Positions 1,632-63,362 of a DNA stretch of 64,000 bases are shown in pieces. Source of the stretch: a virus. Lineage: Duplodnaviria > Caudoviricetes. A model generated the notes under the pieces. It was not told the origin of the DNA, made no database searches, and saw only the letters and a program-made list of their open reading frames with translations. Both the position numbers and the translations under genes were made by a program. Within the stretch, counting starts at the first letter, position 1, and every line of letters starts with the position of its first letter. The stretch is taken from the IMG/VR virus record IMGVR_UViG_3300025789_000018; one strand, given 5' to 3'.

Positions 1632-1698
1632 TATAAATAAGATGTGACTCGCGGTTTCGCACACCCAGTCACTCTAACGCTTACAAGGAGCAATCAGC
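1632..1698 (+). promoter_or_regulatory. Nuclease-cassette leader copy 1 (late promoter + two-stem hairpin + SD)
   Basis: TATAAATA, GTGACT/AGTCAC stem, TCTAACGCTTACAAGGAGCAATCAGC-ATG. Confidence 0.8.
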
Positions 1699-2469
1699 AT
1701 GACTATTTATACAGGATACGTATATCTTTGGTACGACACCAGAGCAAAATTCTTTTATCTTGGTGGCCACAAAGGTAAAGTAGAAGATTCTTATATCTGC
1801 TCTAACAAAATGATGCTGAGAGCATACAAGAAACGTCCAGAAACATTCAAATTTCGTGTGCTTGAATATGTTTACGGCGACAACAAAGCTTTGCGTGAAG
1901 CAGAACAACGTTGGCTAAACATGATCAAAGACGAAGAACTTTATTGGACACCAAACATTTACAACAAAACTGTTAGATATTACAACCAGAAGAAACATTC
2001 TGCTGGAGGTAATGGCACTGCCAATAAAGGCAAAAGTAGACCAAGTTGGAGCAAAGGATATACAAAAGATGAAATAAATCTAAGAAGAGACGGTCTGTTG
2101 TCTTTCTTTCCTTTAGATATTCCTAAGAAACTTCCAAAAAGGCGTCAACTAGACAAAAGTAAAACAAAAATAAAAGAAGCAAAACCAAAGTTTTGTAAAG
2201 TGTATTCGCATATATGCGAAAAGTGTGCTAAAAACTTCTATCATAAAAAAGATGATATTAGATTTTGCTCTCTATCATGCCGCGCAAGTAATGCAGCATC
2301 TTTAGTAAAGGTAAATGGCATGAAGAAAGAACAAACTAGAAAAAGTTTTTCTAATCTAACCACTGGAAGAAAAATGTCCACGAGAGAAGACGGCACAAGA
2401 TATTGGACATATCCAGATAATGAGGGTGTTTATTTCACAGAGTACACCCACAAACTCCGAACTACTTAG
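1699..2469 (+). CDS. Seg-like GIY-YIG homing endonuclease
   Basis: GYVY..FYLGGHKG..YICS N-terminal GIY-YIG-type motifs; C-terminal CxxC..CSxxC zinc motif; antisense to the flanking genes. Confidence 0.85.
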   Translation: MTIYTGYVYLWYDTRAKFFYLGGHKGKVEDSYICSNKMMLRAYKKRPETFKFRVLEYVYGDNKALREAEQRWLNMIKDEELYWTPNIYNKTVRYYNQKKHSAGGNGTANKGKSRPSWSKGYTKDEINLRRDGLLSFFPLDIPKKLPKRRQLDKSKTKIKEAKPKFCKVYSHICEKCAKNFYHKKDDIRFCSLSCRASNAASLVKVNGMKKEQTRKSFSNLTTGRKMSTREDGTRYWTYPDNEGVYFTEYTHKLRTT

Positions 2470-2470
2470 A

Positions 2471-2756
2471 TCAGGCAGACATTCTCACGGCTGCAAAATC
2501 GTTGTCGTTATGTGCAACTAGGTTGACATTTACAGTTTTAGCCACTCGGCCAGCGAATCAGTCTAGACTTTCCTATCCAATGCAAATCGATCCCAGGTCA
2601 TCCCCATCAACTACACTGTGCTATATAAGGATAGCGTTAGTCCTAAGTCTTTAGACAATACTATCTAGCAGATACTAAATGCACAGTATAGATGGTGGAG
2701 ATGGGGAGAATCGAACTCCCGTCTTTACATCTTTCAGTCCGCTTTCAAACAACTGA
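2471..2756 (-). ncRNA. ssrA: Circularly permuted (two-piece) tmRNA
   Basis: Acceptor piece ends GAC-GGGAG-TTCGATT-CTCCC-CATCTCC-ACCA (3' end 2693); coding piece starts GGGGATG at 2605, giving G3-U70; 87-nt intervening stem 2606-2692; TAGTT|GCA resume site and tag AHNDNDFAAVRMSA* at 2471-2515; late promoter 2762-2769. Confidence 0.92.
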
Positions 2757-2796
2757 TAACTTATTTATACGCGAAACGCATATAAATGTCAAGAGA

Positions 2797-3000
2797 TTAT
2801 TTTACCTTTTTGTTGACTTTGGCCTTTGGTGCAGGCGTTAGAGCAGCTTCTAGACGCTCTTCCAGATCCTTGATGTCTGCTTCAGCAGTGGCAAGCTTTT
2901 CCTTCAGTCGGGCACTTTCGATAGTATCTGCGCTTACAACCGTACCAGCCACAAATGCTACGAACAGCAATGCAATGAAAATTCCGTATACAATAAACAT
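2797..3000 (-). CDS. Small membrane protein with coiled-coil tail
   Basis: N-terminal hydrophobic helix; late promoter at 3038-3045. Confidence 0.6.
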   Translation of the reverse strand: MFIVYGIFIALLFVAFVAGTVVSADTIESARLKEKLATAEADIKDLEERLEAALTPAPKAKVNKKVK

Positions 3001-3032
3001 AATGTTCTCCTATTATAAAATGGCAATGATAC

Positions 3033-3173
3033 CTAGATATTTATATCGTTAGCCTCATCATTCCAGACGTCTTTGATCTGCCGACCTCGACCGACTGTCT
3101 TCTTCTTGCTCTCTATAATCTTGGGCTTGTTATAGCGCCAAGAGTTACCAGCAACAGGATTACGCGGCTTCAT
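3033..3173 (-). CDS. Small basic hypothetical protein (46 aa, not in ORF track)
   Basis: Hand translation MKPRNPVAGNSWRYNKPKIIESKKK...; fills the gap on the coding strand. Confidence 0.55.
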   Translation of the reverse strand: MKPRNPVAGNSWRYNKPKIIESKKKTVGRGRQIKDVWNDEANDINI

Positions 3174-3564
3174 TGACTTTCTCCAACCATTGCTTGATCG
3201 AACCAAACTTCAGATCAAAACACCATTCAAGACGTTCATAGCCGTAGAAGTTCAAATCATCAAGTTCATCTTCTGCATCCTCAAGGATTTCAATAGCATG
3301 TTCAACCGAAGTACCAGGAACAAGTTCCTGAATCTTCTCAATGCGGCCGACAAAAACCTTGAAGTTGTTTTCATGACGAATAGCTTCTTCTCGGTTTTGA
3401 AGATCAAGCATTTTAACCAGAAACTCAAAGTCCTTTTCAAAAGCTTCTAGAGAAAGGAAAGTGATCCCACGAGGGCGAAAGCCGTTAAGATCCTTGAAAA
3501 GATCCGAATAGATGTCACCATCATGCGAGTTGGTCAGGGCGTTGATGTCCGACAGGTTCAACAT
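3160..3564 (-). CDS. Hypothetical early protein
   Basis: ORF directly behind the early promoter element 3565-3625. Confidence 0.7.
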   Translation of the reverse strand: MLNLSDINALTNSHDGDIYSDLFKDLNGFRPRGITFLSLEAFEKDFEFLVKMLDLQNREEAIRHENNFKVFVGRIEKIQELVPGTSVEHAIEILEDAEDELDDLNFYGYERLEWCFDLKFGSIKQWLEKVNEAA

Positions 3565-3625: not shown

Positions 3626-3652
3626 CCCAAAAGTTGTTTCAGTGCGTGAAAC

Positions 3653-3946: not shown

Positions 3947-3947
3947 A

Positions 3948-5533: not shown

Positions 5534-5602
5534 TATAAATAGAAGTGTCTGTCGCGATACTCCAATATCCACAGACTCTAACGCTAAACAGGAGCATCAG
5601 CT
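5534..5602 (+). promoter_or_regulatory. Nuclease-cassette leader copy 2
   Basis: TATAAATA, GTCTGT/ACAGAC stem, TCTAACGCTAAACAGGAGCATCAGCT-ATG. Confidence 0.85.
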
Positions 5603-6124
5603 ATGAATATATATCTTTATATCAAACAATGTACACATTGTCAACTAAAATATTTTGGTAAAACATCACAATCAAATCCTTATGAATATAAAGGATCAGG
5701 AAAGAGATGGCGTAATCACCTAAAGAAACACAAAGCATCTGTTATAACACTTGAAGTTTTTTCATTTGATAATGAACAAGATGCTAAAGAGTTTGCTCTA
5801 GCGTTTTCTAGAGAACACTCAATAGTAGAATCTAAAGAGTGGGCAAATCTTATAGAAGAAGACGCACTCTGTGGTGGATCAAGACCATATAATAAAGAAG
5901 CAAACAAGAAAAACTCTAAACTGGGTGGATTTGCTAAAGCGGCAAAAGGATATCCAGTTTGGAACAAAGGTCTAAAGACTGGTCCAGATTCAGAAGAAAC
6001 TAAAAGAAAAAAGAGCGCCAGTAGAACTGGCAACCGACGCTCTTATAGAGAAGATGGAACTTGGTTTTGGATCAAACCAACTCTGCCATCTCCACAGCAA
6101 GATTCAACGCTTGGACTTTCTTAG
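5603..6124 (+). CDS. GIY-YIG family homing endonuclease
   Basis: IYLYIKQCTHCQLKYFGKT..Y.GSGKRW..H; paralogous to 12334 and 62769. Confidence 0.8.
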   Translation: MNIYLYIKQCTHCQLKYFGKTSQSNPYEYKGSGKRWRNHLKKHKASVITLEVFSFDNEQDAKEFALAFSREHSIVESKEWANLIEEDALCGGSRPYNKEANKKNSKLGGFAKAAKGYPVWNKGLKTGPDSEETKRKKSASRTGNRRSYREDGTWFWIKPTLPSPQQDSTLGLS

Positions 6125-7049
6125 TTTGGTTTACACCATACCAAGATGAGGCGAGTCGCGTATCTGCGCTTCGGCCGAGTACATGGTCAGTCAGATAAGT
6201 GACCGCGTTATAGGCTTGCCAGAAAGTGCCTTCTGCAAACTGTGCGCCAGGCTGTTCATGGAGTGCTTCCATCGCAAACTGTGCAGCACGGCTGTGCAAC
6301 TGACCAGCGTTCTCAATAGCAGAGTTCTTCTTATCAGAGGTCTTGGGGAAGATACGATTGAAGTATTCAACGATGTTTTCGTTGCTGTACTTCTTGGTGC
6401 CGAGAAAGGCTGCCATTTCCTTATACTTAGCAAGCTTATCACTAGCAATACCGAGAGTTTCCTTGACCATATCAGGATCAAACTCACGGCGGTGATTGAT
6501 CTTCACCATGTTAGAAGCCTTACCACCAAGGGCAAGTGTCAGAGTGTTATTGCAGACAACACGAATGGGAGTAAAACGAACGTCAATCGACTTACCATAC
6601 TGATGAGGATTGCTGAAGAGCAGGAAGCCTTCAACCTTGTCTCCACCAAACAGTTCAAATGAGTCGTTGATCTTTGCAAGACCCCAGACCATCTTGCCGT
6701 CCATCAGAGAACCAGCAGTGTGCATGGACATATCGCCAGCACCAACAAAATCATTGAAGAAGCGAAATGCTTCCACATTCTGAAGTGGATTCCAGTCATC
6801 CGTGATAACGTCAAGCACCTTGCTATCGCTGCTACGGATCAGAGCAGAGTGACCAGTGTTGATCTTCTGACCGTTATACATTGCAGGAAGAGGAACAGTG
6901 TCAACTGTCCAGTCAAGCCGAGCAGCTTCCATCATCTGTTCAGGAGTGAGGTCATTAGAGACCTTGAAGCCGAGACCGTGCCAGGGCAGATCGCCAGCGT
7001 ATGCATGACTAAAAGATCCATCAGAAAGTTGTTCAATCATATGTGCCAT
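6072..7049 (-). CDS. DUF932/DUF945-like phage/plasmid protein (TIGR03299-like)
   Basis: AYAGDLPWHGLG...PLQNVEAF.FF...TAGSL..GK.VW...FTPIRVVCNNTL. Confidence 0.8.
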   Translation of the reverse strand: MAHMIEQLSDGSFSHAYAGDLPWHGLGFKVSNDLTPEQMMEAARLDWTVDTVPLPAMYNGQKINTGHSALIRSSDSKVLDVITDDWNPLQNVEAFRFFNDFVGAGDMSMHTAGSLMDGKMVWGLAKINDSFELFGGDKVEGFLLFSNPHQYGKSIDVRFTPIRVVCNNTLTLALGGKASNMVKINHRREFDPDMVKETLGIASDKLAKYKEMAAFLGTKKYSNENIVEYFNRIFPKTSDKKNSAIENAGQLHSRAAQFAMEALHEQPGAQFAEGTFWQAYNAVTYLTDHVLGRSADTRLASSWYGVNQTKKVQALNLAVEMAELV

Positions 7050-7133
7050 AGTATATTTCCTTTCACAACATCATTGTTGATATATTCTTATTACAACATT
7101 TTAGAAAAAATGTCAACCAAAAAATCAATCTTA

Positions 7134-7200
7134 TATAAATAAAATGTCTGTCACGGTATCCCCATACCCACAGACTCTAACGCTAAACAGGAGCATCAGC
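7134..7200 (+). promoter_or_regulatory. Nuclease-cassette leader copy 3
   Basis: TATAAATA, GTCTGT/ACAGAC and GGTAT/ATACC stems, same 3' block. Confidence 0.85.
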
Positions 7201-7707
7201 ATGTCTATTTATCACACACATCACATTGTCCCTCGCCATATGGGAGGCACAGACGATCCTTCAAATCTTGTCAGATTGACGATTGAAGAACACGCGGAAG
7301 CGCATAAAAAGTTGTATGAGGAATACGGCAAAGAAGAGGATAGGATTGCTTGGTTAGCCTTGTCTGGCCAGATTACTCTCTCTGAGGCATCTAAAATGGC
7401 TCATATTCTAGGTTCTTACAAAGGTGGATATGCGAAGAAACCCAACAAAGTACCAGCGCACAATAAAATAGATTGTTATTGCGTTGGTTGTAGAAAAAGA
7501 ATGAAACCTTCAGAGAAGGGTCACAAACTTTGTTTTAAAAAAGCATATGGTTTAGAGAGAACGCCAAACTCTTCTTTTTTCACATCAGAAAACGGTAAAG
7601 ATATATCTAAAAGAAACAATGCCACCTCTACTTGTCCACACTGCAATAAACAAGGTCAATATAGAGCAATGAAAAGATGGCATTTTGATAAATGTAAAGC
7701 GAAATGA
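7201..7707 (+). CDS. HNH homing endonuclease (Mob-like) with C-terminal CPHC zinc finger
   Basis: HHIVPRHMGGTDDPSNLVRLTIEEHAEAH; start set at ATG 7201 after the AGGAG SD. Confidence 0.85.
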   Translation: MSIYHTHHIVPRHMGGTDDPSNLVRLTIEEHAEAHKKLYEEYGKEEDRIAWLALSGQITLSEASKMAHILGSYKGGYAKKPNKVPAHNKIDCYCVGCRKRMKPSEKGHKLCFKKAYGLERTPNSSFFTSENGKDISKRNNATSTCPHCNKQGQYRAMKRWHFDKCKAK

Positions 7708-7713
7708 TTCGCT

Positions 7714-7959
7714 TTAAAATGTCAATGAAAAGTTTTCGTCATTCAAAATAAATGCGTGATCGTCGGTGTCGCCAGGAAACTCTTCAAACCAAACGATAGG
7801 GATAAACTCGTATCCGTCATGTTCGACACCGATCTTGCGAATCGTTACCCTCTTATCAAGAGTAGGACCTGGAATATCATACCCAGTTTTCTCATCAACC
7901 CACTCATCAACGTTGCAAAGCAAAGTTTGACCAACTTCAATGTTCTTAATCATAATCAA
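7714..7959 (-). CDS. Hypothetical early protein
   Basis: Behind an early promoter (TTGACA 8009-8014). Confidence 0.6.
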   Translation of the reverse strand: MIMIKNIEVGQTLLCNVDEWVDEKTGYDIPGPTLDKRVTIRKIGVEHDGYEFIPIVWFEEFPGDTDDHAFILNDENFSLTF

Positions 7960-8017
7960 ATCACCTTTCTCACTGTCTATATTTTCATCATAACAGATTC
8001 GCGATAAATGTCAACCA

Positions 8018-8872
8018 CTATTTGCAGCAGGTGACTTTCGCCATCGACATCCACTTGGGGCTGTTCATGTTGCGGATTCCTGCAACCTTGAGAACCATAC
8101 GCAGCGAAAGTTCACGCATGGTGTTTTGATGCGTTTCAATGAAAGACACAACATCGACCTGTGCGGCCTTTGCGATACCTTCACGATCAAGCATACCCTT
8201 ATCAAGGACTTGCTTGATGCGGATCATATAGTCACGCTTAGTCTTCATCGTAAGATCGATATAATGCGAACGAGAAATCATAGCGTTCATATGAGGAGCC
8301 AACTTGTGGCCTTTGCCAATCATAGCATCAAAGTCAAGATTGGTAATGAAAATGATAGTACCTTCAAACTCAAAACTCTTGGGCATGACAGTCATATCGG
8401 TTTCATCGATCAGAGTACCTTCCGTCATGTAACTAATACGACGGACTTTATTGCTGTCACAAGCAGCTTTAAGAAGATTGAGTGAAATATCATCAAAGAA
8501 GATAGCATCGGCATCATCGAAAACCAAAACTTTGCCTTGATCTTTATGTTGAAAGAGCAAGCGATACAAAGATGGCGCTTTCAGATGACCCTTAACAATC
8601 GTATGATTTTCTTCGGAAGCATCCCATCCTTTGAGTGCTTCCTCTACGGTAAAAGACTTACCAAGACCAGCAGGACCAGATACGATCAAAGCGCGAATAT
8701 CACCCTTGATCGCAGCATGAGTCATTTCATCCAGAATATCAAAACGTTCGAGGATGCGTTCTGAAATCTCAGCATCAGTCTCGACAATCTTTTGAATGTT
8801 GACTTCGCTGATATCGCGAATCTTGACCTTAGAAGTTTTACGAAACCCAGCTTTAGGAACACCACGAGGCAT
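8018..8872 (-). CDS. P-loop (AAA-type) ATPase
   Basis: Walker A GPAGLGKS, Walker B LVFDD. Confidence 0.8.
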   Translation of the reverse strand: MPRGVPKAGFRKTSKVKIRDISEVNIQKIVETDAEISERILERFDILDEMTHAAIKGDIRALIVSGPAGLGKSFTVEEALKGWDASEENHTIVKGHLKAPSLYRLLFQHKDQGKVLVFDDADAIFFDDISLNLLKAACDSNKVRRISYMTEGTLIDETDMTVMPKSFEFEGTIIFITNLDFDAMIGKGHKLAPHMNAMISRSHYIDLTMKTKRDYMIRIKQVLDKGMLDREGIAKAAQVDVVSFIETHQNTMRELSLRMVLKVAGIRNMNSPKWMSMAKVTCCK

Positions 8873-9482
8873 AACGAATCACTTTCTCTCTCTGACTACT
8901 TTTTCATCATAGCTGATTCGATAAAAATGTCAACCTTTTATACCAAGCGCCTTGCGACCAGGAGACATGTAATCTTTTTCAACATTTGTTTTATATGCAT
9001 GACAGCACTTGCAAAGTGTCTGACAGTTATCTTCAGTGTTGTGTGATGGATTGCCATCTTTGTGATCGACATCAAGCATACCATCCCAGATGATCGTGGT
9101 CGTGCAAGTAAATCCCAATCGACCGTCGATGTTTTCACAATAAGTTTTACGAAACTTACGGTAAGGATGAAAAGAGTTCGTAAACTGAGTTACATTATCA
9201 AACCCTGCTTTCTTTGCCATAACCTGCAGGATATTATCGAGACCATGCTGACTTGCTGTGTGTTTACTATGACATTTAGCGCAACGTTTCCGAAAGATTG
9301 GATATCCATCTTTTCGATATCGACCACAGTGTTGGCCAGTTTTGTTGCAACCATCAACGACGCACTTTGGCCTTTCGCTAATGTGAATAATCTTCTTTAT
9401 GACACTAGAACTAGCATTCATAACGAATCACTTTCTCTCTCTGACTACTTTTTCATCATAGCTGATTCGATAAAAATGTCAA
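8870..9482. repeat. Perfect 64-bp direct repeats (8870-8933 and 9419-9482) flanking an HNH gene
   Basis: Both copies read CATAACGAATCACTTTCTCTCTCTGACTACTTTTTCATCATAGCTGATTCGATAAAAATGTCAA. Confidence 0.95.
8930..9421 (-). CDS. HNH endonuclease
   Basis: DVDHKDGNPSHNTEDNCQTLCKCCHAYKT; Cys-rich N-terminus. Confidence 0.8.
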   Translation of the reverse strand: MNASSSVIKKIIHISERPKCVVDGCNKTGQHCGRYRKDGYPIFRKRCAKCHSKHTASQHGLDNILQVMAKKAGFDNVTQFTNSFHPYRKFRKTYCENIDGRLGFTCTTTIIWDGMLDVDHKDGNPSHNTEDNCQTLCKCCHAYKTNVEKDYMSPGRKALGIKG

Positions 9483-9489
9483 GCTTGCA

Positions 9490-10353
9490 TCAAAAGTTTT
9501 TTATCAAACATTCGGTGACTTTCACCTTTTGACCATCTTTGGCTCCTCGGCCTGCGGTGTATGTCACATCAAAAAGCAAAGGAGAAAACGAATCGATCAG
9601 TTTTGATTCGAAAAAGTTGTCATAATGATACTTGTTAGCCATCGCAACAAAAGCGCCAGCATTCGCTGCATTGTTCATCATATTGCACAGACGTTCTTGA
9701 TCATAATCATCAAAAGCATTTTTTGTGTACTTCGTAAAGCAATCGCGATATGGAGGATCAAGAAACACATACGTGTCTTGATTGACATATTTGTCAAGGG
9801 TTTCGAAATCGTTTGAATGTAGATTCAGGTTCTGCGAAAAGATATGAAAGGCATTAATGACATCAACATCATAGATTTTTTCACGTTCGTTCAGTAGACC
9901 ACATGGAGTACCAAACTTGTTGTTAGTGTTCTTATTGATTTGCCATATGCCATTAAAAGATGTTTTTAGTAGTGAAAATAGCAATCCAGCCCGCTCGGCG
10001 TCGCTTAGATGATTATATGCATGAATGTTACGTTGTTCATAATAGAATGTTTTTCTGTCTTCTTTGTTCTTCGAAATGTACAAAGACTGATACTGATCAA
10101 CCACCTCAAGAAACTCTTTCTTGTTTGTTTTGATCTGTTTATAGATGTTAATGATATCTTCGTTATAATCGTTCACAAAGAACTCTGTGTTGGGATATCG
10201 ATCAAAGATCCACATACAGACTGCACCAGTACCAAAAAACGGATCGACAAACCTATCAAACTTACTTCCTGGCCAGAAGTCTGATCCATACTTCGATTTC
10301 ATTTTAGTCTTAGCACCAGCCCAACGAAAAAGTGGCTTCAAATCTTTCATCAT
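9490..10353 (-). CDS. Dam-like (D12 class) DNA adenine methyltransferase
   Basis: PLFRWAGAK, FVDPFFGTGAV, VNDYNEDIIN, FLDPPY. Confidence 0.9.
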   Translation of the reverse strand: MMKDLKPLFRWAGAKTKMKSKYGSDFWPGSKFDRFVDPFFGTGAVCMWIFDRYPNTEFFVNDYNEDIINIYKQIKTNKKEFLEVVDQYQSLYISKNKEDRKTFYYEQRNIHAYNHLSDAERAGLLFSLLKTSFNGIWQINKNTNNKFGTPCGLLNEREKIYDVDVINAFHIFSQNLNLHSNDFETLDKYVNQDTYVFLDPPYRDCFTKYTKNAFDDYDQERLCNMMNNAANAGAFVAMANKYHYDNFFESKLIDSFSPLLFDVTYTAGRGAKDGQKVKVTECLIKNF

Positions 10354-10850
10354 ATCTCCAATAGTGATAGTGTTTTATCCATAATAGAAACGATTTCATC
10401 TAAAGTAAAACCGTGCTCGGACATATGAAACTTAAAGTTTTTAGGATACATAATAGTATACTGAGAGGCCAATCTGCCTAATGGTCCATGTGGTACAACA
10501 CCAGAGCCAGAACAAAACGTTACGTATTTGACATTCTGAGATTGCCATTTCGCAAAGTCTGCGTTTTTAACCCATCGCTCTTGAGCGTTTCCTCGCATGT
10601 CTTGTTTCTTTGCTTCGAAGACTGCTACGAGTGTACCATCACTATTATACCAAGCACCACCATCTGGAGCAAAACCCATAACTTTATCTGTTTTGAATAT
10701 CTCTATCTTCTTTTGCTTGCTCATACGTTTCACACACTTCAGGTGTGGATGATTCTTGGCAACAATATCGATAGCAAGCTTACATGTATTGTCTAGAGAC
10801 TTAGACAGAGTATCAAAAGCTGTAGTACCAACTTGTATGCCTCGACTCAT
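10350..10850 (-). CDS. EcoRI-like type II restriction endonuclease
   Basis: PDGG...FEAKKQ...GNAQERWVKN..YVTFCSG parallels EcoRI PDGG..EAK.QG..GNAIER..KN; overlaps the MTase start (ATGA). Confidence 0.7.
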   Translation of the reverse strand: MSRGIQVGTTAFDTLSKSLDNTCKLAIDIVAKNHPHLKCVKRMSKQKKIEIFKTDKVMGFAPDGGAWYNSDGTLVAVFEAKKQDMRGNAQERWVKNADFAKWQSQNVKYVTFCSGSGVVPHGPLGRLASQYTIMYPKNFKFHMSEHGFTLDEIVSIMDKTLSLLEI

Positions 10851-10910
10851 ATCGAATCACCTTATATATCATTTACTACATTACTGATAATATAAGGATT
10901 AGAAAAAATG

Positions 10911-11597
10911 TCAAGTGGTTTTTTGAGGTACCTCGCCTGGTTGCTGAGATTTAATCCATTGCTGACCGACTCTATTTTTCACTGGACCTGTAGCGATCTT
11001 GCGAATCGTTTTGTGAACACCGTGGAGAAGATCCTCGCTGGCATTATTGTTATCAACAATATGCATGTTCTCATTACCGAAGTGATCCTGAAAGTGGCCG
11101 ATGTTGTCCTGGACTTGATTCCACATACGTTCAACGTGATGTGATGGCAATGATCGTTCACGCTCCATATTGCGCTGCTGAGCCACTGGAAGCGAGGTAT
11201 TGACGAACACCATATGTGTATCGTATCCCTGATTGCGTAGCGCCTCCGACTGCGCCTTGATCTTGGCCGCATCTTTCCCAGTACCATCGATTACCATACC
11301 TAGCTTACCTTGTTGATATAGCTTCTGGCGCTTGTTGGTGAGGTCTTTTGCTTTTGCTCTGACTACATCACGTTCTGCTGTTTCATGTTCAGGCATAGTT
11401 GGATCCAAGCCATGTTCTTTCATGCCCTTCTCAAACAGATCATCTGAGTTGACCATTTTGAAGCCTAAGCCGCCCATGGTTTTCTTTGTCACATAAGATT
11501 TGCCAGAACCAGGACCACCAGCAAGAAAGATTGCTTTTAGTTTTGCTGGATCATTAACGCCTTCTTCAAGGTCAACAAAGTCATTGAAACGTAGCAT
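10911..11597 (-). CDS. P-loop kinase (zeta-toxin/AAA_33-like); possible virion-internal protein
   Basis: FLAGGPGSGKS, VIDGTG, IVDNN; late promoter 11616-11623. Confidence 0.75.
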   Translation of the reverse strand: MLRFNDFVDLEEGVNDPAKLKAIFLAGGPGSGKSYVTKKTMGGLGFKMVNSDDLFEKGMKEHGLDPTMPEHETAERDVVRAKAKDLTNKRQKLYQQGKLGMVIDGTGKDAAKIKAQSEALRNQGYDTHMVFVNTSLPVAQQRNMERERSLPSHHVERMWNQVQDNIGHFQDHFGNENMHIVDNNNASEDLLHGVHKTIRKIATGPVKNRVGQQWIKSQQPGEVPQKTT

Positions 11598-11623: not shown

Positions 11624-12235
11624 TTATTTCTTATGCATGACAGCCATGGTCTGCTTCTGCTTCATTAGATCATCATAATCTTTTTCATAAGATTTTGATA
11701 CAGAATCAGGAGATGCTTTCCAGTCGTTTCTGAGATTATAAACATCACGATCAGTGACATAGTTCTCATCATCTTTAGGATCAAGATGAACTGCTTCATC
11801 AGACTTAGGATCATATGCATGAACGTTAATGCTAGGATGCTTGGATGCTTTGTCCCAAACACGTCTAGCGCCATGGGATTGATTCCCTGACGCTAGTATT
11901 TTATTGTGATTTAAGATTAGATGTTGATATAGATGTTCAGCACCTAAGGAGTCTTTGTTTGCATCTAGAAAGTCTACATGCTCTGCACCTTTGGTTCTAT
12001 ACTTTTTAGTAGATAGTGCTATGTTAACTTTGTTTGTTTTAGGGTCAGCGACATAGTATGTGTTTTCTTTTGTGGACAATGGTTTTTGATATACGTGATG
12101 GCCATTCTTAAGGATTCCAATATGTTTGGCCTTTTTAGGTACATCTTTACCAAGTTCATCATGAAAAACATCGCCTACATTGACGCCATTTTGCATGACT
12201 TCTTGTAGACTTCTAATGTCTTTAAACCGAATCAT
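11624..12235 (-). CDS. Hypothetical late protein with capsid-targeting-like N-terminus
   Basis: MIRFKDIRSLQE start; late promoter 12262-12269. Confidence 0.6.
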   Translation of the reverse strand: MIRFKDIRSLQEVMQNGVNVGDVFHDELGKDVPKKAKHIGILKNGHHVYQKPLSTKENTYYVADPKTNKVNIALSTKKYRTKGAEHVDFLDANKDSLGAEHLYQHLILNHNKILASGNQSHGARRVWDKASKHPSINVHAYDPKSDEAVHLDPKDDENYVTDRDVYNLRNDWKASPDSVSKSYEKDYDDLMKQKQTMAVMHKK

Positions 12236-12267
12236 GGAAACTCCTAAACATTGTTTAGAAGTATTTA

Positions 12268-12333
12268 TATAAATAGATGTGGTTCACGATGTTGACGCAT
12301 CTAACCACACTATCGCTAAACAGGAGCAACAGC
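12268..12333 (+). promoter_or_regulatory. Nuclease-cassette leader copy 4 (most diverged)
   Basis: TATAAATA, GTGGTT/AACCAC and GATG/CATC stems, CGCTAAACAGGAGCAACAGC-ATG. Confidence 0.8.
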
Positions 12334-13002
12334 ATGTCTATTTATCTCTATGTCAAACAATGTCCCCACTGTGGGCTAAAGTATTTTGGTAAAACAGAAC
12401 AAGATCCATATACTTACAACGGATCAGGAAAGATGTGGATTCCACACATCAAGAAACACAAAGTCACACCAAAAACAATAGAACTATATGAGTTTTCTGA
12501 TAAAGAGGAAGCAAAAAAGTTTGCTATAAACTTTTCTAAAGAAAACAGAATAGTAGAATCTAAAGAGTGGTTCAATCTTGTTATAGAACAGTGTGACGGT
12601 GGAGACACCTCGGCTTCTCCAGCATTTCAACGATGGATTGATCAGATAGACATGGCTGGTGAAAAAAATCCTATGTATGGTAGATCAGCAATAACTGAAC
12701 AAAATCTTCGTTGGTATACTAACGGTGAGAACAATCTATATCTTCCTGTCGGCACAGAGATGTTGGGTTATCGCCGAGGAAGAACTATAAAACATAGAAA
12801 ACCACATACACAAGAACATAAAGACAAGATATCTAAAGCAAATACGGGAAAGAAAAGTGTAAATCAAAAAACGTGCATATCACCTGATGGAAATATATAC
12901 GAATCTATCACACAAGCCGCAAACGCACATTCAATGACTGTATCGGCGTTCAGACATAAAATCGAACATAAAGAAAAACATTTGGGTTGGATTATTGTTT
13001 GA
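12334..13002 (+). CDS. GIY-YIG homing endonuclease with NUMOD3-like motif
   Basis: IYLYVKQCPHCGLKYFGKT..YNGSG; HTQEHKDKISKANTGK; start at ATG 12334. Confidence 0.82.
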   Translation: MSIYLYVKQCPHCGLKYFGKTEQDPYTYNGSGKMWIPHIKKHKVTPKTIELYEFSDKEEAKKFAINFSKENRIVESKEWFNLVIEQCDGGDTSASPAFQRWIDQIDMAGEKNPMYGRSAITEQNLRWYTNGENNLYLPVGTEMLGYRRGRTIKHRKPHTQEHKDKISKANTGKKSVNQKTCISPDGNIYESITQAANAHSMTVSAFRHKIEHKEKHLGWIIV

Positions 13003-18323: not shown

Positions 18324-18743
18324 TCATTTATAGATTGCTTTCACATGCATCGATGAAATCTTTATAGTACACCAATCATTATAATACTCATCTGAGAGAA
18401 TCGCATCCACAGCAAACATCTCTTTCGCTTCATAATAACTGGCGGATGATCTATTGTCAACAACTTTTAGTATCTGGCGAGAAAAGTTTTCTTTGCCTAA
18501 GTCTTCAACATCTGCTTTCAGACTTGGAGAAGAACCATAATAGGTCTTCCAATCGCTAGGCTTGCGAATCTTCTTCTTCTTACCCTTTATAGTCTTATAG
18601 CCAGCCATTGTAAAGAGTTTTTTGCCAAGATATTTTCGACCAGTAACTTTGTTTGTTATCAAGTAAACAAATGCAAAATGACCATCAGCCTGTGCATCAG
18701 TAAAGGGTTCCCCATCGTAGATCCATGGATTTTCATAATCCAT
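18324..18743 (-). CDS. GIY-YIG nuclease, co-oriented and without the cassette leader
   Basis: FVYLITNKVTGRKYLGKK...WKTYYGSS. Confidence 0.8.
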   Translation of the reverse strand: MDYENPWIYDGEPFTDAQADGHFAFVYLITNKVTGRKYLGKKLFTMAGYKTIKGKKKKIRKPSDWKTYYGSSPSLKADVEDLGKENFSRQILKVVDNRSSASYYEAKEMFAVDAILSDEYYNDWCTIKISSMHVKAIYK

Positions 18744-22227: not shown

Positions 22228-22242
22228 AACAAAACTCCTTTA

Positions 22243-44850: not shown

Positions 44851-45336
44851 TCAAGAAGAAATATCGATTTTAGAAAATCCCTCAGACAATGTTGGCTGTT
44901 GCATAGATTGTACCATACTGTCAAGAACAGTTTGGGGAATGTTTTTGCCAGGGCGACTGTTCAACCTACGTTCCCATTCTTCTTTCTCAGGAGTAGGAAA
45001 CACAACCGCTTCAATCTCATAACCATGATTAGGATGAAAGTTCTTAAGACGATCAAAGAACTTCTTACGAACCTTAGCGTTCAGGTTGGTACGATCAATA
45101 ACAATGGGATACTGCTTTGTTTCCACAGCACGATCAAACTCTTCCCACATGATACGTTCAGCAGCTTTGATGCTGTTAGCCCAAACATCATTATAGGTCT
45201 TGCCTGCGGCTTCTGCGATTTCTTCAACAATGTTATCGGTAGAGATAACAACACATTCGCCTTGAAACTCTTTTTCAATCCAAGTGGACTTGCCAGAAGC
45301 AGGAACACCAACGAGCATGATAATACGCTTAGTCAT
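44851..45336 (-). CDS. Polynucleotide-kinase-like P-loop protein (AAA_33)
   Basis: GVPASGKST, STD, IDRTN..R. Confidence 0.8.
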   Translation of the reverse strand: MTKRIIMLVGVPASGKSTWIEKEFQGECVVISTDNIVEEIAEAAGKTYNDVWANSIKAAERIMWEEFDRAVETKQYPIVIDRTNLNAKVRKKFFDRLKNFHPNHGYEIEAVVFPTPEKEEWERRLNSRPGKNIPQTVLDSMVQSMQQPTLSEGFSKIDISS

Positions 45337-45392
45337 CTCGAATCACTCCATCTATCTGCTACATTTTCAATATAGCTGATTATGAAAAAATG

Positions 45393-45536
45393 TCAATCGT
45401 TATTTTCCAACCGCTGCTTGATGGCAGCAATCACATCATCAAGGCATTCGTGCGAATCGGTGCCGTCTAACTCAAGCATGGCCTTTGCCCAATCAAGGTC
45501 ATCAAGCGCCATTTCCAAAAGTTCACGATCAGTCAT
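45393..45536 (-). CDS. Small hypothetical protein (47 aa, not in ORF track)
   Basis: Hand translation MTDRELLEMALDDL...; coupled to the ligase stop. Confidence 0.5.
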   Translation of the reverse strand: MTDRELLEMALDDLDWAKAMLELDGTDSHECLDDVIAAIKQRLENND

Positions 45537-46782
45537 TGTACTTCACTCCCGGAAACCAAGCATCACGGATCGCTTCATACTTTGCCGTGCGACCAAGGTT
45601 ATTACGGATCGTTTTGCGAACGTCTTCGCCAATCTTCAGACCACTGATAATGTCGTTATCAAAGTTCTTGAAAATAATAGGACGAATGAAAGCATCAACA
45701 CCAACACTGTGCTTCGGATCGATTGCAAACGTTTTACGATCAATACCACGCTCACGGAGATATTCCAGCTTCATACCAATCAGCCTTACGCGACGGGCAA
45801 TATCAAAATGAATATTGCTCTCAAACTGAGTCAGCCGATCACGATCTTCGGCAGGCAGATGAGCCTTGATGTCATCCAGCTTTTCTTCCAGAATCAGTTC
45901 AACGATGTTGCGATCTTGCAGGATAGCTTCCTTCGCCTTGTGAATCTGGAGATACCAATGGCACTTCAACTTCAACATATGACCATCATCAAAACGAACC
46001 ACGAACCCTTCAAGGTCTTCCAGATCGTGGACGTATTCAAGGAAAGCCTTCATATCATTCTGTTCACCATAGTTAGTGAACTCAAATGCACGGACGACAG
46101 GGATATCCCAATCTTCAACATGCAATCGGTTGATACGACCATCACCGAACAGTTTGATATATTCGCCAGTATGCATATCGCGAAGAGCGGTGAGGATCAG
46201 TTGATCTTCCTTGTAGTCCAGAACAATGCGCTGCTTACGCGAACACCATTCAAAGATAGGAGTTACACCGTTGGCAATGCAGGAAGTAGCAAACTTCTCA
46301 TACTGAGGTTTGTTCTTGACGAACTCCTCAACAGGCTTTGCCACGTCGGTAGCACCCATCTTCGTGCCCCAGATCATTTGACCATTCACAATGAACGGAG
46401 CGATCATGGAACCATCCAGCTTCTCAAGGATAGCATGAGGGCGCGACAGATCAATGACATGATCCTGCGTCTCCTCACGCTCGTTCACATTGAAGAACTT
46501 ATGGAACGGGCGACGAATGATATAACCAGTTTCAGTATCAAAGATGATACCACGACATTCACGACGGATTGCTGCGGTGGGATCGTACTCACCAAAAGCA
46601 ATACGATTGAGAGGCTCCTGCCACTTCATATCAACTGGCACATCAGGAAACGTATCGGACATCATCACGTTGTAGTTGATGACCGTGTAGCCTTCCTTCT
46701 CAGCCACAACGAACTCGTAACGACCTTCAATAGCAGGCAGCACATCAGCGATGTTGGTGATGTGAGGAAACTCATAGTTCAT
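45529..46782 (-). CDS. rnlA: RNA ligase 1 (T4 RnlA-like)
   Basis: ECRGIIF..FHKFFN, EKLDGS, TPIFEW, EGFVV, KLK. Confidence 0.88.
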   Translation of the reverse strand: MNYEFPHITNIADVLPAIEGRYEFVVAEKEGYTVINYNVMMSDTFPDVPVDMKWQEPLNRIAFGEYDPTAAIRRECRGIIFDTETGYIIRRPFHKFFNVNEREETQDHVIDLSRPHAILEKLDGSMIAPFIVNGQMIWGTKMGATDVAKPVEEFVKNKPQYEKFATSCIANGVTPIFEWCSRKQRIVLDYKEDQLILTALRDMHTGEYIKLFGDGRINRLHVEDWDIPVVRAFEFTNYGEQNDMKAFLEYVHDLEDLEGFVVRFDDGHMLKLKCHWYLQIHKAKEAILQDRNIVELILEEKLDDIKAHLPAEDRDRLTQFESNIHFDIARRVRLIGMKLEYLRERGIDRKTFAIDPKHSVGVDAFIRPIIFKNFDNDIISGLKIGEDVRKTIRNNLGRTAKYEAIRDAWFPGVKYND

Positions 46783-46835
46783 TGTTCAATCTTTCACTCT
46801 GCTACATTCTCACCATACACGATTCGTATTAAATG

Positions 46836-47909
46836 TCAAGAGGCATTATACCGCTGGATATACCATGGGCGTGCTACATTCGCAATAGCAGATCCCAGCT
46901 TCTTGGTATCAATCTGATTCGCAACGATGGTATCAGCTTCTTCCTTGACGACATCATTGTAGACCCAACGGATAAAATCGCCGAGAGACTTCATATCAAA
47001 GGGCAGCAGTTGTTCGCGAACCAGATTGTCTAGACCCTGTTCAAGACGCGATTCAGTGACAACTGATTCGATGAAAGCCTTCATGTTCTCTACTGCTTCA
47101 ACATCAACAGCAGCAAGAGTCTTGACCTTCGAAGAAGAATGCTTTTCGCCCTTGACTTTAAACCAAGTGCCCGAGTCGTTATAACCAGGAGTGACGCAAG
47201 TCCACACAACACCTTCGCCAATGCCGCTAACACCAAAGTGCTTACCGACAGGGCATTCGGCTTCAACAGCTTCCGTGATTTCGATCATCTTGTTCTGAGC
47301 GATTTCAGGAAAGTTGAAGTCAATGTCGATTTCGTAGGTAGGAAACTCATTGATCCAGTAAATATTAGGGACAGCCCGTTGACTCACTTCAATGAAACTT
47401 GGCATGTTTGCCCAGACAGAATCATCATCTGCATACATTTCTTTATATGCAAACACAACAAACATCTTGTCCAGACCAGTAAGAGCAACACCCTTTTGGA
47501 TATTACCACCGCACCATTCACCAAACAAAACTAGTTTTGTTGGCATTTTATTGGTCTTGCGCGGAGCAAACTGTTCCATAAGACCGTTGTGGAAACATGC
47601 TTCAAAATACTGAATAAAGATTGATTCGTGACTCTTAGCCCAAAGCATGAAGCCAGCATTGTCAGAAGTCAGCGACAGTTCACGTTCACGCGACTGATAG
47701 CTAATAGTGTCGGTGGCAACGTCATACACGATACCCGCGTTGGTACCATGCAGCTTGACAGTACCACGAAACTTCAGCGTAGGAAGCGGGCGAGAATGAT
47801 CATACACAGCATTGCCATCAGCATCCTTGCCAGCATACCGCGTATGGTTCTTGACATGATGAATCGTGGAACGGAACTGTTCAATAGAGGGAAACCTAAT
47901 CAAGTGCAA
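46836..47909 (-). CDS. RNA ligase 2 (Rnl2 family)
   Basis: KLHGTN, QSR, FGEW, GEGVV, KVK; probable TTG start after AAGGAG. Confidence 0.85.
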   Translation of the reverse strand: MHLIRFPSIEQFRSTIHHVKNHTRYAGKDADGNAVYDHSRPLPTLKFRGTVKLHGTNAGIVYDVATDTISYQSRERELSLTSDNAGFMLWAKSHESIFIQYFEACFHNGLMEQFAPRKTNKMPTKLVLFGEWCGGNIQKGVALTGLDKMFVVFAYKEMYADDDSVWANMPSFIEVSQRAVPNIYWINEFPTYEIDIDFNFPEIAQNKMIEITEAVEAECPVGKHFGVSGIGEGVVWTCVTPGYNDSGTWFKVKGEKHSSSKVKTLAAVDVEAVENMKAFIESVVTESRLEQGLDNLVREQLLPFDMKSLGDFIRWVYNDVVKEEADTIVANQIDTKKLGSAIANVARPWYIQRYNAS

Positions 47910-48499
47910 TCTCCTTTTCTTTGCATGGCATATCTTCCGCACCAAAATCTACGATATAAGGAAAGGGAAGATAATCTTCCAGAACATCAACCACTGTTCC
48001 TACTTGATTTTCGTTAACAAGTCCAATATCTCGCGTGGCATACACCCTATCACCAATCTTAAACATAATCTTCTTCCTCATCTTCAATCAAGAAACCTTC
48101 ACCACCACAAACGACGCAAGTTTCACCATATTCTACACCACTGCCACCACAGACCATACAATCAATAGGATTGCAGCCACGACGACCATACGCATCTTCA
48201 TACACATCAGGATCAATCATAAAGACTCACTTATAAAGTTCAAGAGGATGAACGACCGTCAGTTCTTCTTTGACATATAGCCAGAAGGGTTCAGGAAAAG
48301 GCGGAGCATATTCACGCCCATAGAACACTTTGATCAACTTGCCATCGACATCGGCGACAACACCAACGCGATCCTTGTTGGGCCAAATGCACGAGCGGAC
48401 CGAATCACCAACTTTAATCATAAAAAATCTTCCTTTCGCTGTCTGATAACTCATCATATCAAAAGGGAGATAAATGTCAACCAGTTTTTTCAGAAAAAA

Positions 48500-61610: not shown

Positions 61611-62285
61611 TCAAGAGGGAAATGTGTATCCCACCAAAGATTCTAACTCTGATAAAGATTTTTCTATCAGAGCAGATCCTTCAACGTTGTCAGCCATATA
61701 AACTTTGATAGAGCGATCTTTGAGATAGACAACTTTGTAATACGCCGATGGAACGGGAATCCTACGTTCTCCAATACAAGTAGATGGATCAGTATAGATT
61801 GCACCAGTCACCACGTATTGCGTCTCCATCCCTCTCACCATCGCTTCCAGTTCTTTCCAGATAATCCTGTTTACATCTGGTAGTTGTGGTGTCATGTTGG
61901 TCATTAGAAATGTGTCGCGCATCTGGACTTCGTTTCCAGCGTCAGCAGCGGGTGTTAGATGCCCGCGATCATATCCACTGTCTGTATAGTCATCTGGTGT
62001 TGGTGACCGTTTCAGGCGAGGATCAGAGCAGAATGCGTCGTCTCTTTCCACGTGGTCATGTGGTGGCTGTGTCACTTCAGCAGATAGAATCGTTCTCATA
62101 TTCTTTTCATCATAAAGAACGAGATAGAACGAGTTACAAAGCACTGTGGTACCAGGCACGACAATAGCCTGACCGTAAGGCCAGACTTGATTTGCAGGTA
62201 ACGATGGAGGCAGCTTCCGCTTTGCTAGAAAAGAAAATGCAGCGGAAGCTAACATCCTAGGGATAGATAGCAACCGCTGCATCAT
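61611..62285 (-). CDS. DNA/RNA non-specific endonuclease (NucA family)
   Basis: YDRGHLTPAAD..MTNMTPQ..VNR..WKELE..VPSAYYK. Confidence 0.9.
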   Translation of the reverse strand: MMQRLLSIPRMLASAAFSFLAKRKLPPSLPANQVWPYGQAIVVPGTTVLCNSFYLVLYDEKNMRTILSAEVTQPPHDHVERDDAFCSDPRLKRSPTPDDYTDSGYDRGHLTPAADAGNEVQMRDTFLMTNMTPQLPDVNRIIWKELEAMVRGMETQYVVTGAIYTDPSTCIGERRIPVPSAYYKVVYLKDRSIKVYMADNVEGSALIEKSLSELESLVGYTFPS

Positions 62286-62322
62286 TATTTCCTTGAGTGT
62301 TAGATTACACTCTATTTATTAT

Positions 62323-62592
62323 TTAGTCTTCTTGAGCCTGTGTTACGTTCGAACTACGCTTGTAGTTGCCCCAATATTCATTGGCACGAACACGGATATT
62401 CAGCATGTTTGTCTGGTTCTTATTAGGATTGACAATGGTAATCCAAGGATTACGACCAGCACGCCATGCTTTAACAAGATCAAGTTCATGTGTTAGTGTG
62501 CAACGATCACGCTTCACAAGCTTTGAAGTTGCTTTTGAAACGTTTGAGTGAATACCTTTTGAGACCTTAGTCTTACGTGTACTAACTGCCAT
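62323..62592 (-). CDS. Conserved basic hypothetical protein
   Basis: KAWRAGRNPWITIVNPNK. Confidence 0.65.
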   Translation of the reverse strand: MAVSTRKTKVSKGIHSNVSKATSKLVKRDRCTLTHELDLVKAWRAGRNPWITIVNPNKNQTNMLNIRVRANEYWGNYKRSSNVTQAQED

Positions 62593-62611
62593 TATTTACC
62601 TTTCATGATGT

Positions 62612-62685
62612 TGGAGCCTCATAACGGTACCTCCCCGTTTTCCTCTGGGTGGAAGCCAGATGCATTGATTCTATGCTAATGAGGC
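62612..62685 (-). tRNA. Atypical tRNA-Gly (UCC) lacking D-loop GG and T-loop UUC
   Basis: GCCTCAT/ATGAGGC-TCCA acceptor stem, GCAT/ATGC D stem, TCTGG-CTTCCAC-CCAGA anticodon arm, AACGG-GGAGGTA-CCGTT T arm. Confidence 0.75.
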
Positions 62686-62698
62686 AAAGGGTGTTTTA

Positions 62699-62768
62699 TA
62701 TAAGTAATATTGTCTGTCACGATACTACTAATATCCACAGACTCTAACGCTAAACAGGAGCATCAGCT
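62699..62768 (+). promoter_or_regulatory. Nuclease-cassette leader copy 6
   Basis: TATAAGTA, GTCTGT/ACAGAC stem, TCTAACGCTAAACAGGAGCATCAGCT-ATG. Confidence 0.85.
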
Positions 62769-63362
62769 ATGGTTATTTATCTATACGTGAAGCAATGTGG
62801 TCATTGTGATATGAAATATTTTGGTTACACTAAAACAAAAAATCCTTTCAGATATAAAGGATCTGGTCAGTATTGGATCAGACACATAAAATCGCATAAC
62901 ATAACACCTATAACTTTAGAAGTACACACCTTCTATAACCAAGAAGACGCTACGGCATATGCTATTTCGTTCTCACAAGAAAATGATATTGTCGAATCTA
63001 AATCTTGGGCAAATCTTGTACAGGAAGACGCTAAACCTGGAAATGTGGGATGTAAATATCACACAGGACCAAGATCGGGGTTAACTGAAGAATCGAGAAT
63101 CAAAATGGGACTTGCGAACAAGGGGAAGAAACGATCATCTGATACTATAAAAAAACTTTCAGATTCACACAAAAACAGAAACAAAACTCAACTAGAAATA
63201 GATCGTTTAACTAGTCTACACAAGAAAAATGTAGGTAAAAAAAGATCAACTGAAACAAAAGAAAAAATGAGACTTGCTCAACTTGGTAAAGTTCCAAGTG
63301 AAGAGACTAAGAAAAAAATAAGCGAAACATTAAAAAATAAACATCAAGGCAAAAGATCGTAG
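62769..63362 (+). CDS. GIY-YIG homing endonuclease with NUMOD3-like repeats
   Basis: IYLYVKQCGHCDMKYFGYT..YKGSG; SEETKKKISE-type repeats. Confidence 0.85.
   Translation: MVIYLYVKQCGHCDMKYFGYTKTKNPFRYKGSGQYWIRHIKSHNITPITLEVHTFYNQEDATAYAISFSQENDIVESKSWANLVQEDAKPGNVGCKYHTGPRSGLTEESRIKMGLANKGKKRSSDTIKKLSDSHKNRNKTQLEIDRLTSLHKKNVGKKRSTETKEKMRLAQLGKVPSEETKKKISETLKNKHQGKRS

Follow-up and report, generated by a model that had tools for sequence, protein, structure and literature searches.

We describe a conserved cassette that precedes six homing-nuclease genes in a 64,000-nucleotide stretch of DNA from IMG/VR record IMGVR_UViG_3300025789_000018 (the whole stretch analysed, hereafter the window), which covers part of the genome of an uncultured T4-like phage (41% G+C). 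Nearly all genes of the window lie on the minus strand, and several of them are preceded by sigma70-like promoters. The six nuclease genes lie on the plus strand (Table 1). The remaining long plus-strand open reading frames (ORFs) are shadows of minus-strand genes (those for RNA ligase 1, an AAA_33 kinase and a DUF7168 protein), and the six nucleases are therefore the only credible plus-strand genes, as an earlier note on this DNA, made from the sequence alone, had held.

A 19-nt pattern, CTAACGCTWWANAGGAGCA, searched with up to three mismatches, matched the window six times and on the plus strand only (positions 1674, 5578, 7177, 12310, 35436 and 62744), against 0.10 matches expected in the shuffled window; none of 100 shuffles reached six. 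The same layout was found in all six copies: TATAA(A/G)TA, which is late-promoter-like by sequence and lies 58-61 nt upstream of the ATG, followed by a bulged hairpin, CTCTAACGCT, four variable bases, AGGAGCA(A)TCAGC with the Shine-Dalgarno (SD) sequence, the ATG, and nnTATTTAT. The earlier note had reported a promoter-plus-leader module before these six nucleases; the TATTTA conserved inside the ORF was absent from its account. Two covariance models, R1 and R2, were run over the whole window. Both found the six full copies, to which R1 added one weak partial match and R2 nothing more, and neither found a cassette at the co-oriented nuclease-like genes at 8930 and 18324, which had indeed been said to lack it. 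These two genes are presumably expressed from the surrounding early units.

Table 1. Cassette copies, nuclease genes and other features of the window. hp1 and hp2 are the two hairpins of the cassette; bits are covariance-model scores; all antisense RNAs are predicted.
Feature	Coordinates	Strand	Parts, scores and assignments
Cassette copy 1	1634-1716	-	R2 74.9 bits (R1 85.1 bits on +); fold -16.1 kcal/mol; promoters TATAAATA at 1632-1639 (+, overlapped by the U-rich tail) and, as the full 8-mer, at 1704-1711 (-); hp2 1644-1672; hp1 1674-1697; antisense RNA about 1634-1698 (-)
Cassette copy 2	5536-5620	-	R2 83.4 bits; fold -19.1 kcal/mol, z -2.3, minimum-free-energy structure hp1 + hp2; + promoter 5534-5541; hp2 5547-5576; hp1 5578-5600; antisense RNA about 5536-5601 (-)
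Cassette copy 3	7136-7218	-	R2 80.0 bits; fold -21.3 kcal/mol, z -2.9; + promoter 7134-7141; hp2 7146-7175; hp1 7177-7199; minus core inside 7206-7212; antisense RNA about 7136-7200 (-)
Cassette copy 4	12268-12351	-	R2 81.1 bits; fold -19.9 kcal/mol, z -2.75; + promoter 12268-12275; hp2 12279-12308; hp1 12310-12332, compensatory variant CTATCGCT/AGCAACAG; minus core inside 12339-12345; antisense RNA about 12270-12333 (-)
Cassette copy 5	35393-35477	-	R2 82.0 bits; fold -18.6 kcal/mol, z -2.5; + promoter TATAAGTA 35391-35398; hp2 35404-35434; hp1 35436-35458; minus core inside 35465-35471; antisense RNA about 35393-35459 (-)
Cassette copy 6	62701-62786	-	R2 76.7 bits; fold -18.4 kcal/mol, z -2.1; + promoter TATAAGTA 62699-62706; hp2 62712-62742; hp1 62744-62766; minus core inside 62774-62780; antisense RNA about 62701-62767 (-)
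Cassette remnant	22229-22302	+	R1 16.5 bits, E 0.95 (weak); promoter TATAAATA 22243-22250 and 5' part of hp2 only
Nuclease gene 1	1699-2469	+	256 aa, probable GIY-YIG; 3' end touches or overlaps the gene for the permuted tmRNA
Nuclease gene 2	5603-6124	+	173 aa, CxxC GIY-YIG-like
Nuclease gene 3	7201-7707	+	168 aa, HNH; PF01844, phrog_655
Nuclease gene 4	12334-13002	+	222 aa, CxxC GIY-YIG-like with NUMOD3; PF07460, phrog_314 'homing endonuclease'
Nuclease gene 5	35460-36122	+	220 aa, HNH_3; PF13392 7e-15, phrog_12324 1e-43
Nuclease gene 6	62769-63362	+	197 aa, CxxC GIY-YIG-like with NUMOD3; PF07460, phrog_314
Nuclease-like gene without cassette	8930-9421	-	Weak HNH, phrog_333, 2e-5; co-oriented with phage genes
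Nuclease-like gene without cassette	18324-18743	-	SegE-type GIY-YIG, PF19835, 7e-35; co-oriented with phage genes
Permuted (two-piece) tmRNA	2380-2785	-	Rfam RF04321, 72 bits; ARAGORN tag AHNDNDFAAVRMSA
AAA_33/zeta-toxin-like P-loop kinase	44851-45336	-	RNA-repair-like set (44851-47945)
T4 Rnl1-type RNA ligase	45529-46782	-	RNA-repair-like set
Second RNA ligase	46836-47945	-	RNA-repair-like set; phrog_548

The family assignments of the earlier note stood for the HNH, HNH_3 and CxxC GIY-YIG-like proteins. Its designation of the 1699 protein as Seg-like could not be confirmed: no match was obtained in Pfam, PHROG, NCBIfam or PDB, BLASTP against one Seg-like protein returned nothing significant, and the sole GIY-YIG indication is the similarity of its language-model features (0.94) to GIY-YIG phage clusters in the Atlas. 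The 5603 protein gave no direct profile match in Pfam or PHROG. It was grouped with the 12334 gene on the basis of the nearest record in IMG/VR, a 68-kb contig (G001) that is collinear with the window and mostly about 90-99% identical to it, because the 5603 gene matches, at ~73% DNA identity along ~285 bp, the part of G001 that is collinear with window 12334, and because the G001 equivalents of the two genes (L003 and L005, respectively) share a cluster in N-terminal clustering.

Scanning IMG/VR with the core pattern located at least 118 stretches, and all listed matches except three carry the complete layout; another scan, in which only the commonest hairpin was fixed, located at least 120. 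At least 232 distinct copies were then collected by a nhmmer profile search over the retrieved stretches, 197 of the 232 listed preceding an ORF of at least 140 aa. Among the copies listed, the 194 distinct complete downstream proteins are all homing-endonuclease-like, and no ordinary phage gene was found behind a cassette. Families were called from Pfam and PHROG tallies on 90 proteins and from clusters of the 194, with singletons checked: GIY-YIG proteins with 'YVYAY...PYYIGKG' (53), the 'IYLYxK...LKYxGxT' type (42), HNH with NKYT/HHIxP (37), HNH_3 (23), Seg-like (20), classical GIY-YIG (6) and 13 singletons, which include TnsA-like PD-(D/E)xK, DUF559/Vsr-like, zinc-finger-HNH and NUMOD3-only proteins. 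Apart from the NUMOD3-only and no-match proteins, these are small stand-alone ORFs with a recognised nuclease domain. Nuclease genes were truncated in about a tenth of the first scan set, and a few copies are partial scars. Among the copies listed, the cassette goes only with homing-endonuclease genes, which represent five or more unrelated folds, and it is more uniform than the gene-specific hairpins of T4 (PMC2988022), so that the portable, structure-conserved module proposed in the earlier note is upheld. A further suggestion of that note, that the RNA is a cofactor of the nucleases, is made unlikely by the sharing of one cassette among five or more unrelated folds, and nothing points to it.

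Against Rfam 15 at gathering thresholds, the whole window gave only a permuted tmRNA and two tRNAs, with the cassette unmatched, and a permissive search with both strands of two copies gave at best 11-18 bits against gathering scores of 42-61 (E 2-8). Neither Rfam membership nor an equal occurrence before non-nuclease genes, the two outcomes that the earlier note had named as arguments against its own proposal, was thus found. BLAST of two copies and of a 3.9-kb stretch against GenBank phages returned only two 21-nt chance matches (E 8), both to one Burkholderia phage (two records). DNA of the window is present in many freshwater lake metagenomes. Cassettes were also seen on contigs (L229-L233) in freshwater metagenome-assembled genomes labelled as Bacteroidetes, Haliscomenobacter (148-kb and 43-kb contigs) and Nitrosomonadales. 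Most likely these contigs are phage DNA that was binned with the bacteria, and their host signal is inconsistent.

The cassette contains two helices. The bulged hairpin of the earlier note (hp2) was recovered by RNAalifold with ten pairs, all ten of which covary with zero one-sided changes, in agreement with the covariation first reported for its stems. What had been taken for a conserved 3x1 internal loop (CRC opposite Y) is an R:Y base pair flanked by two single bulged C; in plus sense this pair is GC in 77 copies, AU in 9, AC in 20 and GU in 0 (set unbiased for hp2). Likewise, the supposedly near-invariant SD block turned out to be one arm of a second, 8-bp helix (hp1), whose arms are CTAACGCT and (A)GCATCAG and whose loop consists of the four variable bases and the AGG of the SD. 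The arms covary in the hairpin-anchored scan, in which the rest of the motif was free, with the pairs CTAATGTT/AACATCAG, CTATGATT/AATCACAG, CTATTACT/AGTAACAG, TTAATACT/AGTATCAA and CTAACGCC/GGCATCAG seen beside the window's own variant at 12310. A rigid 8+8 parse of hp1 mis-registered copies with an extra A, and final pair counts were for this reason taken from a MAFFT alignment of 127 copies (A4) in minus sense. In this alignment 98.9% of pair cells are paired, as compared with 85.8% after shuffling and 31-50% with the partner slid; compensatory changes occur in 17 of 19 pairs, and the covariation score is 0.400 versus 0.144, with none of 500 shuffles reaching the observed values. A YUNR motif is present in the minus-sense hp1 loop of 82 of the 127 copies versus 38 in shuffles, which lends weak support to a recognition loop. 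A pseudoknot between the CRC bulge and CTAACGCT was rejected, as inspection of the alignment showed no covariation of the two segments.

The two strands differ in how well they fold. Over both helices, the minus-sense A4 alignment has 2128 Watson-Crick cells, 252 G·U and 10 A·C. The G·U cells are A·C mismatches in plus sense, in which 88.9% of the same cells are paired, falling to about 77% in hp1 alone. Plus-sense hp1 has 138 A·C versus 6 G·U cells in the hairpin-anchored set, and the firm pairs of hp2, in the set unbiased for hp2, have 18 A·C and zero G·U. The alifold consensus energy is -20.3 kcal/mol in minus sense versus -13.7 in plus sense. For the six window copies, the minimum-free-energy structure in minus sense is hp1, one A and hp2 at -16 to -21 kcal/mol, with z-scores of -2.1 to -2.9 in five of six; in plus sense only hp2 forms, at -11 to -14 kcal/mol (z -0.6 to -1.2). 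Thus hp2 folds in both senses and hp1 in the antisense only. Taken together, the wobble asymmetry, alifold energies and single-sequence folds indicate that the selected fold is very probably that of the minus strand, and not primarily that of the nuclease mRNA leader, as it was read in the earlier note. Selection for pairing in minus-strand DNA instead of in a transcript is less likely.

The opposite strand also carries a conserved promoter-like core. TATTTA, in codons 2-4 of the nuclease genes, is the reverse complement of the late-promoter core TAAATA. It follows the start codon at an offset of 2 nt in 154 copies, 1 nt in 35 and 0 nt in 21; as it falls in three reading frames, it is conserved as nucleotides and not as Ile-Tyr codons. 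The base before it, read off the alignments, is T regardless of the amino acid. Minus cores show the same variants as the plus promoters (TAAGTA; A, C or G before TAAATA), and in A4 they mostly lie 5-6 nt from the G that precedes hp1, with the start codon floating in the gap. The conserved unit spans exactly from one core to the other, and the cores face each other about 66 bp apart. Across the window TATAAATA occurs 17 times versus 2.8 expected, a six-fold excess, and 12 of the 17 are on the minus strand. T4 late promoters consist of a -10-like element only (PMC7892883).

Several TATAAATA sites precede non-coding stretches (1138, 1472, 2762 and 63580), and the one at 2762-2769 lies directly upstream of the permuted tmRNA on the same strand. 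At 12262-12275 a palindromic TATTTATATAAATA holds back-to-back TATAAATA cores, one per strand, namely the plus promoter of a cassette and a divergent minus-strand core before gene 11624-12235, which apparently has no obvious SD. GTCAA, the reverse complement of the TTGAC of a minus -35 box, was found in 33 of the 106 first-scan copies listed, at 40-120 nt before the CTAACGCT core, which places it near the plus promoter or farther upstream. Long-range pairing between the plus promoter and TATTTA in read-through transcripts, following the logic of I-TevI, was considered and rejected: it offers only six A·U pairs, these do not covary (a CTAAATA or GTAAATA promoter is not accompanied by TATTTAG or TATTTAC), and most of the genes are antisense to their flanks.

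We lean towards the reading that the cassette makes an independently transcribed antisense repressor RNA. Two convergent T4-type late-promoter cores (TAAATA) would bound a cassette of ~85 bp, each driving one RNA. With transcription assumed, as for T4 late promoters, to start 6-7 nt after the core, the plus promoter would have the nuclease mRNA begin at the hp2 base or immediately next to it and give a message with a 5' hairpin and an open SD; in this mRNA (CUAACGCU-N4-AGGAGCA-UCAG) two of the eight hp1 pairs are A·C, so that the helix would not close and the SD would stay open. The minus promoter, inside codons 2-4, would give an RNA of ~65-70 nt composed of hp1, one A, hp2 and a U-rich, G-free tail. 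Its hp1 would have 8 bp with G·U and present a CCU-N4 loop that, with the 5' arm, is complementary to SD/AGGAGCA, and its hp2 would have 11 pairs and two G bulges. Being encoded opposite the mRNA leader, the predicted RNA is necessarily complementary to all of it, including the ribosome-binding region. If it acts as IS10 RNA-OUT and IS200 art200 do, pairing would keep ribosomes off the message and lay the duplex open to RNase III, and convergent transcription may add promoter interference. As the nuclease genes share the cassette, the RNA may in addition act in trans on the messages of the genome's other nucleases. We infer the firing of the minus promoter, the end of the RNA at the tail and the repression.

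A minus-sense fold could also serve the neighbouring genes, either as a terminator or 3'-end stabiliser of antisense transcripts that come from them or as a 5' leader that re-expresses a displaced phage gene, and we regard this as unlikely. The hp2 hairpin with its tail is terminator-like, the tail reading A-C-U-U-U-U-A-U-U-U-A in minus sense (6.2 U in 11 nt, almost no G) and being the reverse complement of the plus promoter and its purine-rich spacer. The neighbours in the window are all minus-strand genes with sigma70-like promoters, and in T4, nuclease genes are known to contain promoters that serve the genes behind them (PMC2988022). Of the upstream flanks, 57 run opposite to the nuclease gene, 20 run with it and 18 are ambiguous; at about 60% antisense and about 20% co-oriented, antisense placement is common but not a rule, and the fifth of cassettes that are co-oriented do not fit a role towards antisense neighbours. 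Moreover, a terminator needs neither hp1 nor a TAAATA conserved at near-constant upstream spacing, and the distance from cassette to the next minus-strand gene ranges in the window from 35 to over 600 nt. These genes have their own promoters just beyond the cassette, between it and the gene (TATAAATA on the minus strand at 12262 and 35363, and sigma70-like sites), so that a minus transcript is not needed as their leader, which argues for its being a separate small RNA.

It is improbable that the fold belongs to the nuclease mRNA leader, as a 5' stabiliser hairpin and a translational operator for a shared protein, with the opposite strand functionless. It is certain that the SD and start codon serve in the plus-sense message, and hp2, which is about 97% Watson-Crick, forms in plus sense too, where it would sit at the 5' end of the mRNA. 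T4 gp43 and RegA-type operators, like 5' hairpins, are established precedents. Nevertheless, nearly all copies have one or two plus-sense A·C mismatches in hp1, and at the pairs that vary G·U is never seen in plus sense, when an mRNA fold should show the opposite. SD sequestration was not seen in the plus-sense leader folds, in which AGGAG is mostly unpaired and has at most 3-4 weak pairs. The frame-independent TATTTA and the covariation of CTAACGCT with GCATCAG are also left unexplained by a leader fold.

Several points weigh against an antisense repressor. Both the mRNA and the antisense RNA are predictions from sequence; a search for sequencing runs that contain this DNA listed no RNA run. 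TAAATA is taken as a late promoter on the basis of T4 kinship and motif enrichment. The minus-strand core of copy 2 is a weaker variant, TATATA (5608-5613). As a terminator stem, hp2 has 11 pairs with two bulges, followed by a tail that starts A-C and a U run that is interrupted, and a simple terminator scan of the window did not call hp2. Each IMG/VR scan fixed part of the motif (the hp1 arms in the first, the outer stem of hp2 in the second), and many of the contigs are related, so that pair-cell counts do not equal independent events. Finally, hp2 may have a role in stability at the mRNA 5' end that coexists with an antisense role.

Cassettes appear to move separately from the genes that they precede. 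The outer stem GTCTGT/ACAGAC is common to four of the six window copies, which precede three different nuclease families; elsewhere, among the 106 distinct first-scan copies listed, it is found only in this phage's near-identical copies (G001 and sister contigs) and in one L094 copy. Similarity between copies ends at the two promoter cores. A rare stem before different families, together with this limit of similarity, indicates that cassettes have been exchanged or homogenised within the genome independently of the ORF.

At the 22.2-kb remnant, G001 has a complete cassette and a 233-aa GIY-YIG-like nuclease gene adjoining nrdA, and the alignment shows identity through promoter and hairpin to ...GTATCC, followed by a break; the last ~27 nrdA codons of the two genomes are unalignable at the DNA level. 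Near 44 kb lies a complex multi-indel region in which G001 has an extra cassette-plus-nuclease unit. In G001 (L002), L020, L058 and L072, the leader and upstream flank of copy 3 are followed by ATG TCT ACG ATT TAA and no HNH gene; the L002-type copy lies across a 255-bp segment (window 7702-7956), with TATTTA also destroyed (region 7004-8028), and is a local rearrangement or nuclease loss. Partial cassettes without a nuclease gene (L227:9464-9520, L219:1138-1179 and L215:2565-2610), which consist of hp2 with the tail or of hp2 and hp1 without SD, look like scars of lost nuclease genes, as at 22229. No target duplication was seen at the sites that differ between window and G001, and none of the three (22.2, 44 and 7-8 kb) is a clean filled-versus-empty pair, the first being a deletion remnant, the second multi-indel and the third rearranged, which speaks against the hairpin end of a non-autonomous mobile element entertained in the earlier note. 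Hairpins of minus-strand single-stranded DNA, as a recombination or replication-priming signal or as the ends of a tiny mobile element with the 8-bp inverted repeat TATAAATA...TATTTATA, would fit the strand asymmetry through G·T as well as RNA does through G·U, the exact end of the unit at two inverted cores and the exchange of the GTCTGT stem between loci, but we consider them very improbable given the lack of duplications and clean empty sites at these deletions and complex rearrangements, inverted repeats that are fully explained as promoters, and a U-rich tail and SD-complementary loop of no obvious use in DNA.

A more far-reaching form of the antisense repressor reading is possible but doubtful. 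The cassette would be a self-contained, exchangeable sense/antisense unit that moves by recombination, and its small RNAs would form a genome-wide trans network through the shared hp1/SD segment, capping nuclease expression collectively. This would amount to multicopy inhibition for homing endonucleases, and the G·U/A·C asymmetry would be a device by which one DNA segment folds in the regulator and is open in the message.

The window also encodes NrdA, NrdB, two RNA ligases and the permuted tmRNA, as well as a gp61-type primase with 49% identity to that of cyanophage S-RIM8. By ARAGORN coordinates the tmRNA overlaps the 3' end of the nuclease gene at 1699-2469; its permuted form suggests an alphaproteobacterial or cyanobacterial host. 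Near-consensus sigma70-type promoters (TTGACA, 16 nt, TATGAT or TATTAT) precede successive minus-strand genes at 7987-10914, and the two ligases and a kinase form an RNA-repair-like set (Table 1).

Functionally, the closest systems are transposon antisense RNAs, with which we would class the cassette, its transcription and repressive action both being predictions. In IS10/Tn10 (RNA-IN/RNA-OUT) and IS200 (art200), a convergent promoter over the 5' end of the gene gives a small folded antisense RNA directed against the ribosome-binding region (PMC5006887, PMC4513863). The cassette likewise has a predicted convergent promoter overlapping the 5' end of a mobile-element gene, and copy-number-dependent action in trans is possible. 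Unlike those elements, it belongs to homing endonucleases of a lytic T4-like phage, both of its promoters are predicted phage late promoters, its predicted RNA has two hairpins and covers the whole leader, and one cassette serves many unrelated nuclease families. SymE/SymR, a type I toxin-antitoxin, is similar in having a small cis-antisense RNA (predicted here) over the 5' end and SD of a potentially harmful nuclease-like gene; the targets of the cassette are DNA homing nucleases and not membrane or RNA toxins, and addiction is not indicated. No homology to SymR was found, the Rfam SymR score of 11.3 bits against a gathering score of 61 (E 7.8) being at chance level.

Among T4-like phages, the only antisense RNA reported opposite a homing-endonuclease gene, with which it is co-expressed, is that of cyanophage S-PM2 (CfrI; Millard et al. 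2010, as cited in PMC2984593, which calls it the first antisense RNA reported in this group). According to that account, CfrI is ~225 nt long, spans the endonuclease gene and psbA at a single locus and has no known function. The cassette RNA, likened to CfrI here by description only, is predicted to be ~65 nt and to cover the 5' leader only; its element exists in hundreds of copies and covaries. T4-type control, by a late promoter and a hairpin that sequesters the ribosome-binding site (RBS), is known for I-TevI, I-TevII, I-TevIII, segB and Aeh1 mobE, and seg43(25) has a non-sequestering hairpin upstream of the RBS (PMC2988022). The cassette resembles the former in its predicted late promoter directly upstream and the latter in a non-sequestering hairpin just upstream of the RBS. 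However, each T4 element has a sequence particular to its gene and operates on early or middle transcripts that read through on the same strand (PMC2988022), whereas the cassette is one conserved family, most of its genes are antisense to their neighbours, the SD is mostly open in leader folds and the selected fold lies very probably on the other strand. In the window the nuclease genes are antisense to all neighbours, so that early promoters would not be expected to feed them by read-through on the same strand.

How phages other than T4 hold their many homing nucleases in check is poorly known. The element described here is a widespread structured RNA element, short and clearly bounded, with hundreds of freshwater-virome copies, strong covariation and no Rfam family, and the cassette would be usable as a marker for nuclease genes, and for the scars of lost ones, in metagenomes. 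If the antisense model is true, the cassette would be the first family-wide control of homing endonucleases by RNA, would parallel the antisense control of transposons and would show how a portable regulatory cassette can be shared by selfish genes. It would further exemplify a design principle whereby wobble pairs let a helix form on the transcript of one strand only.

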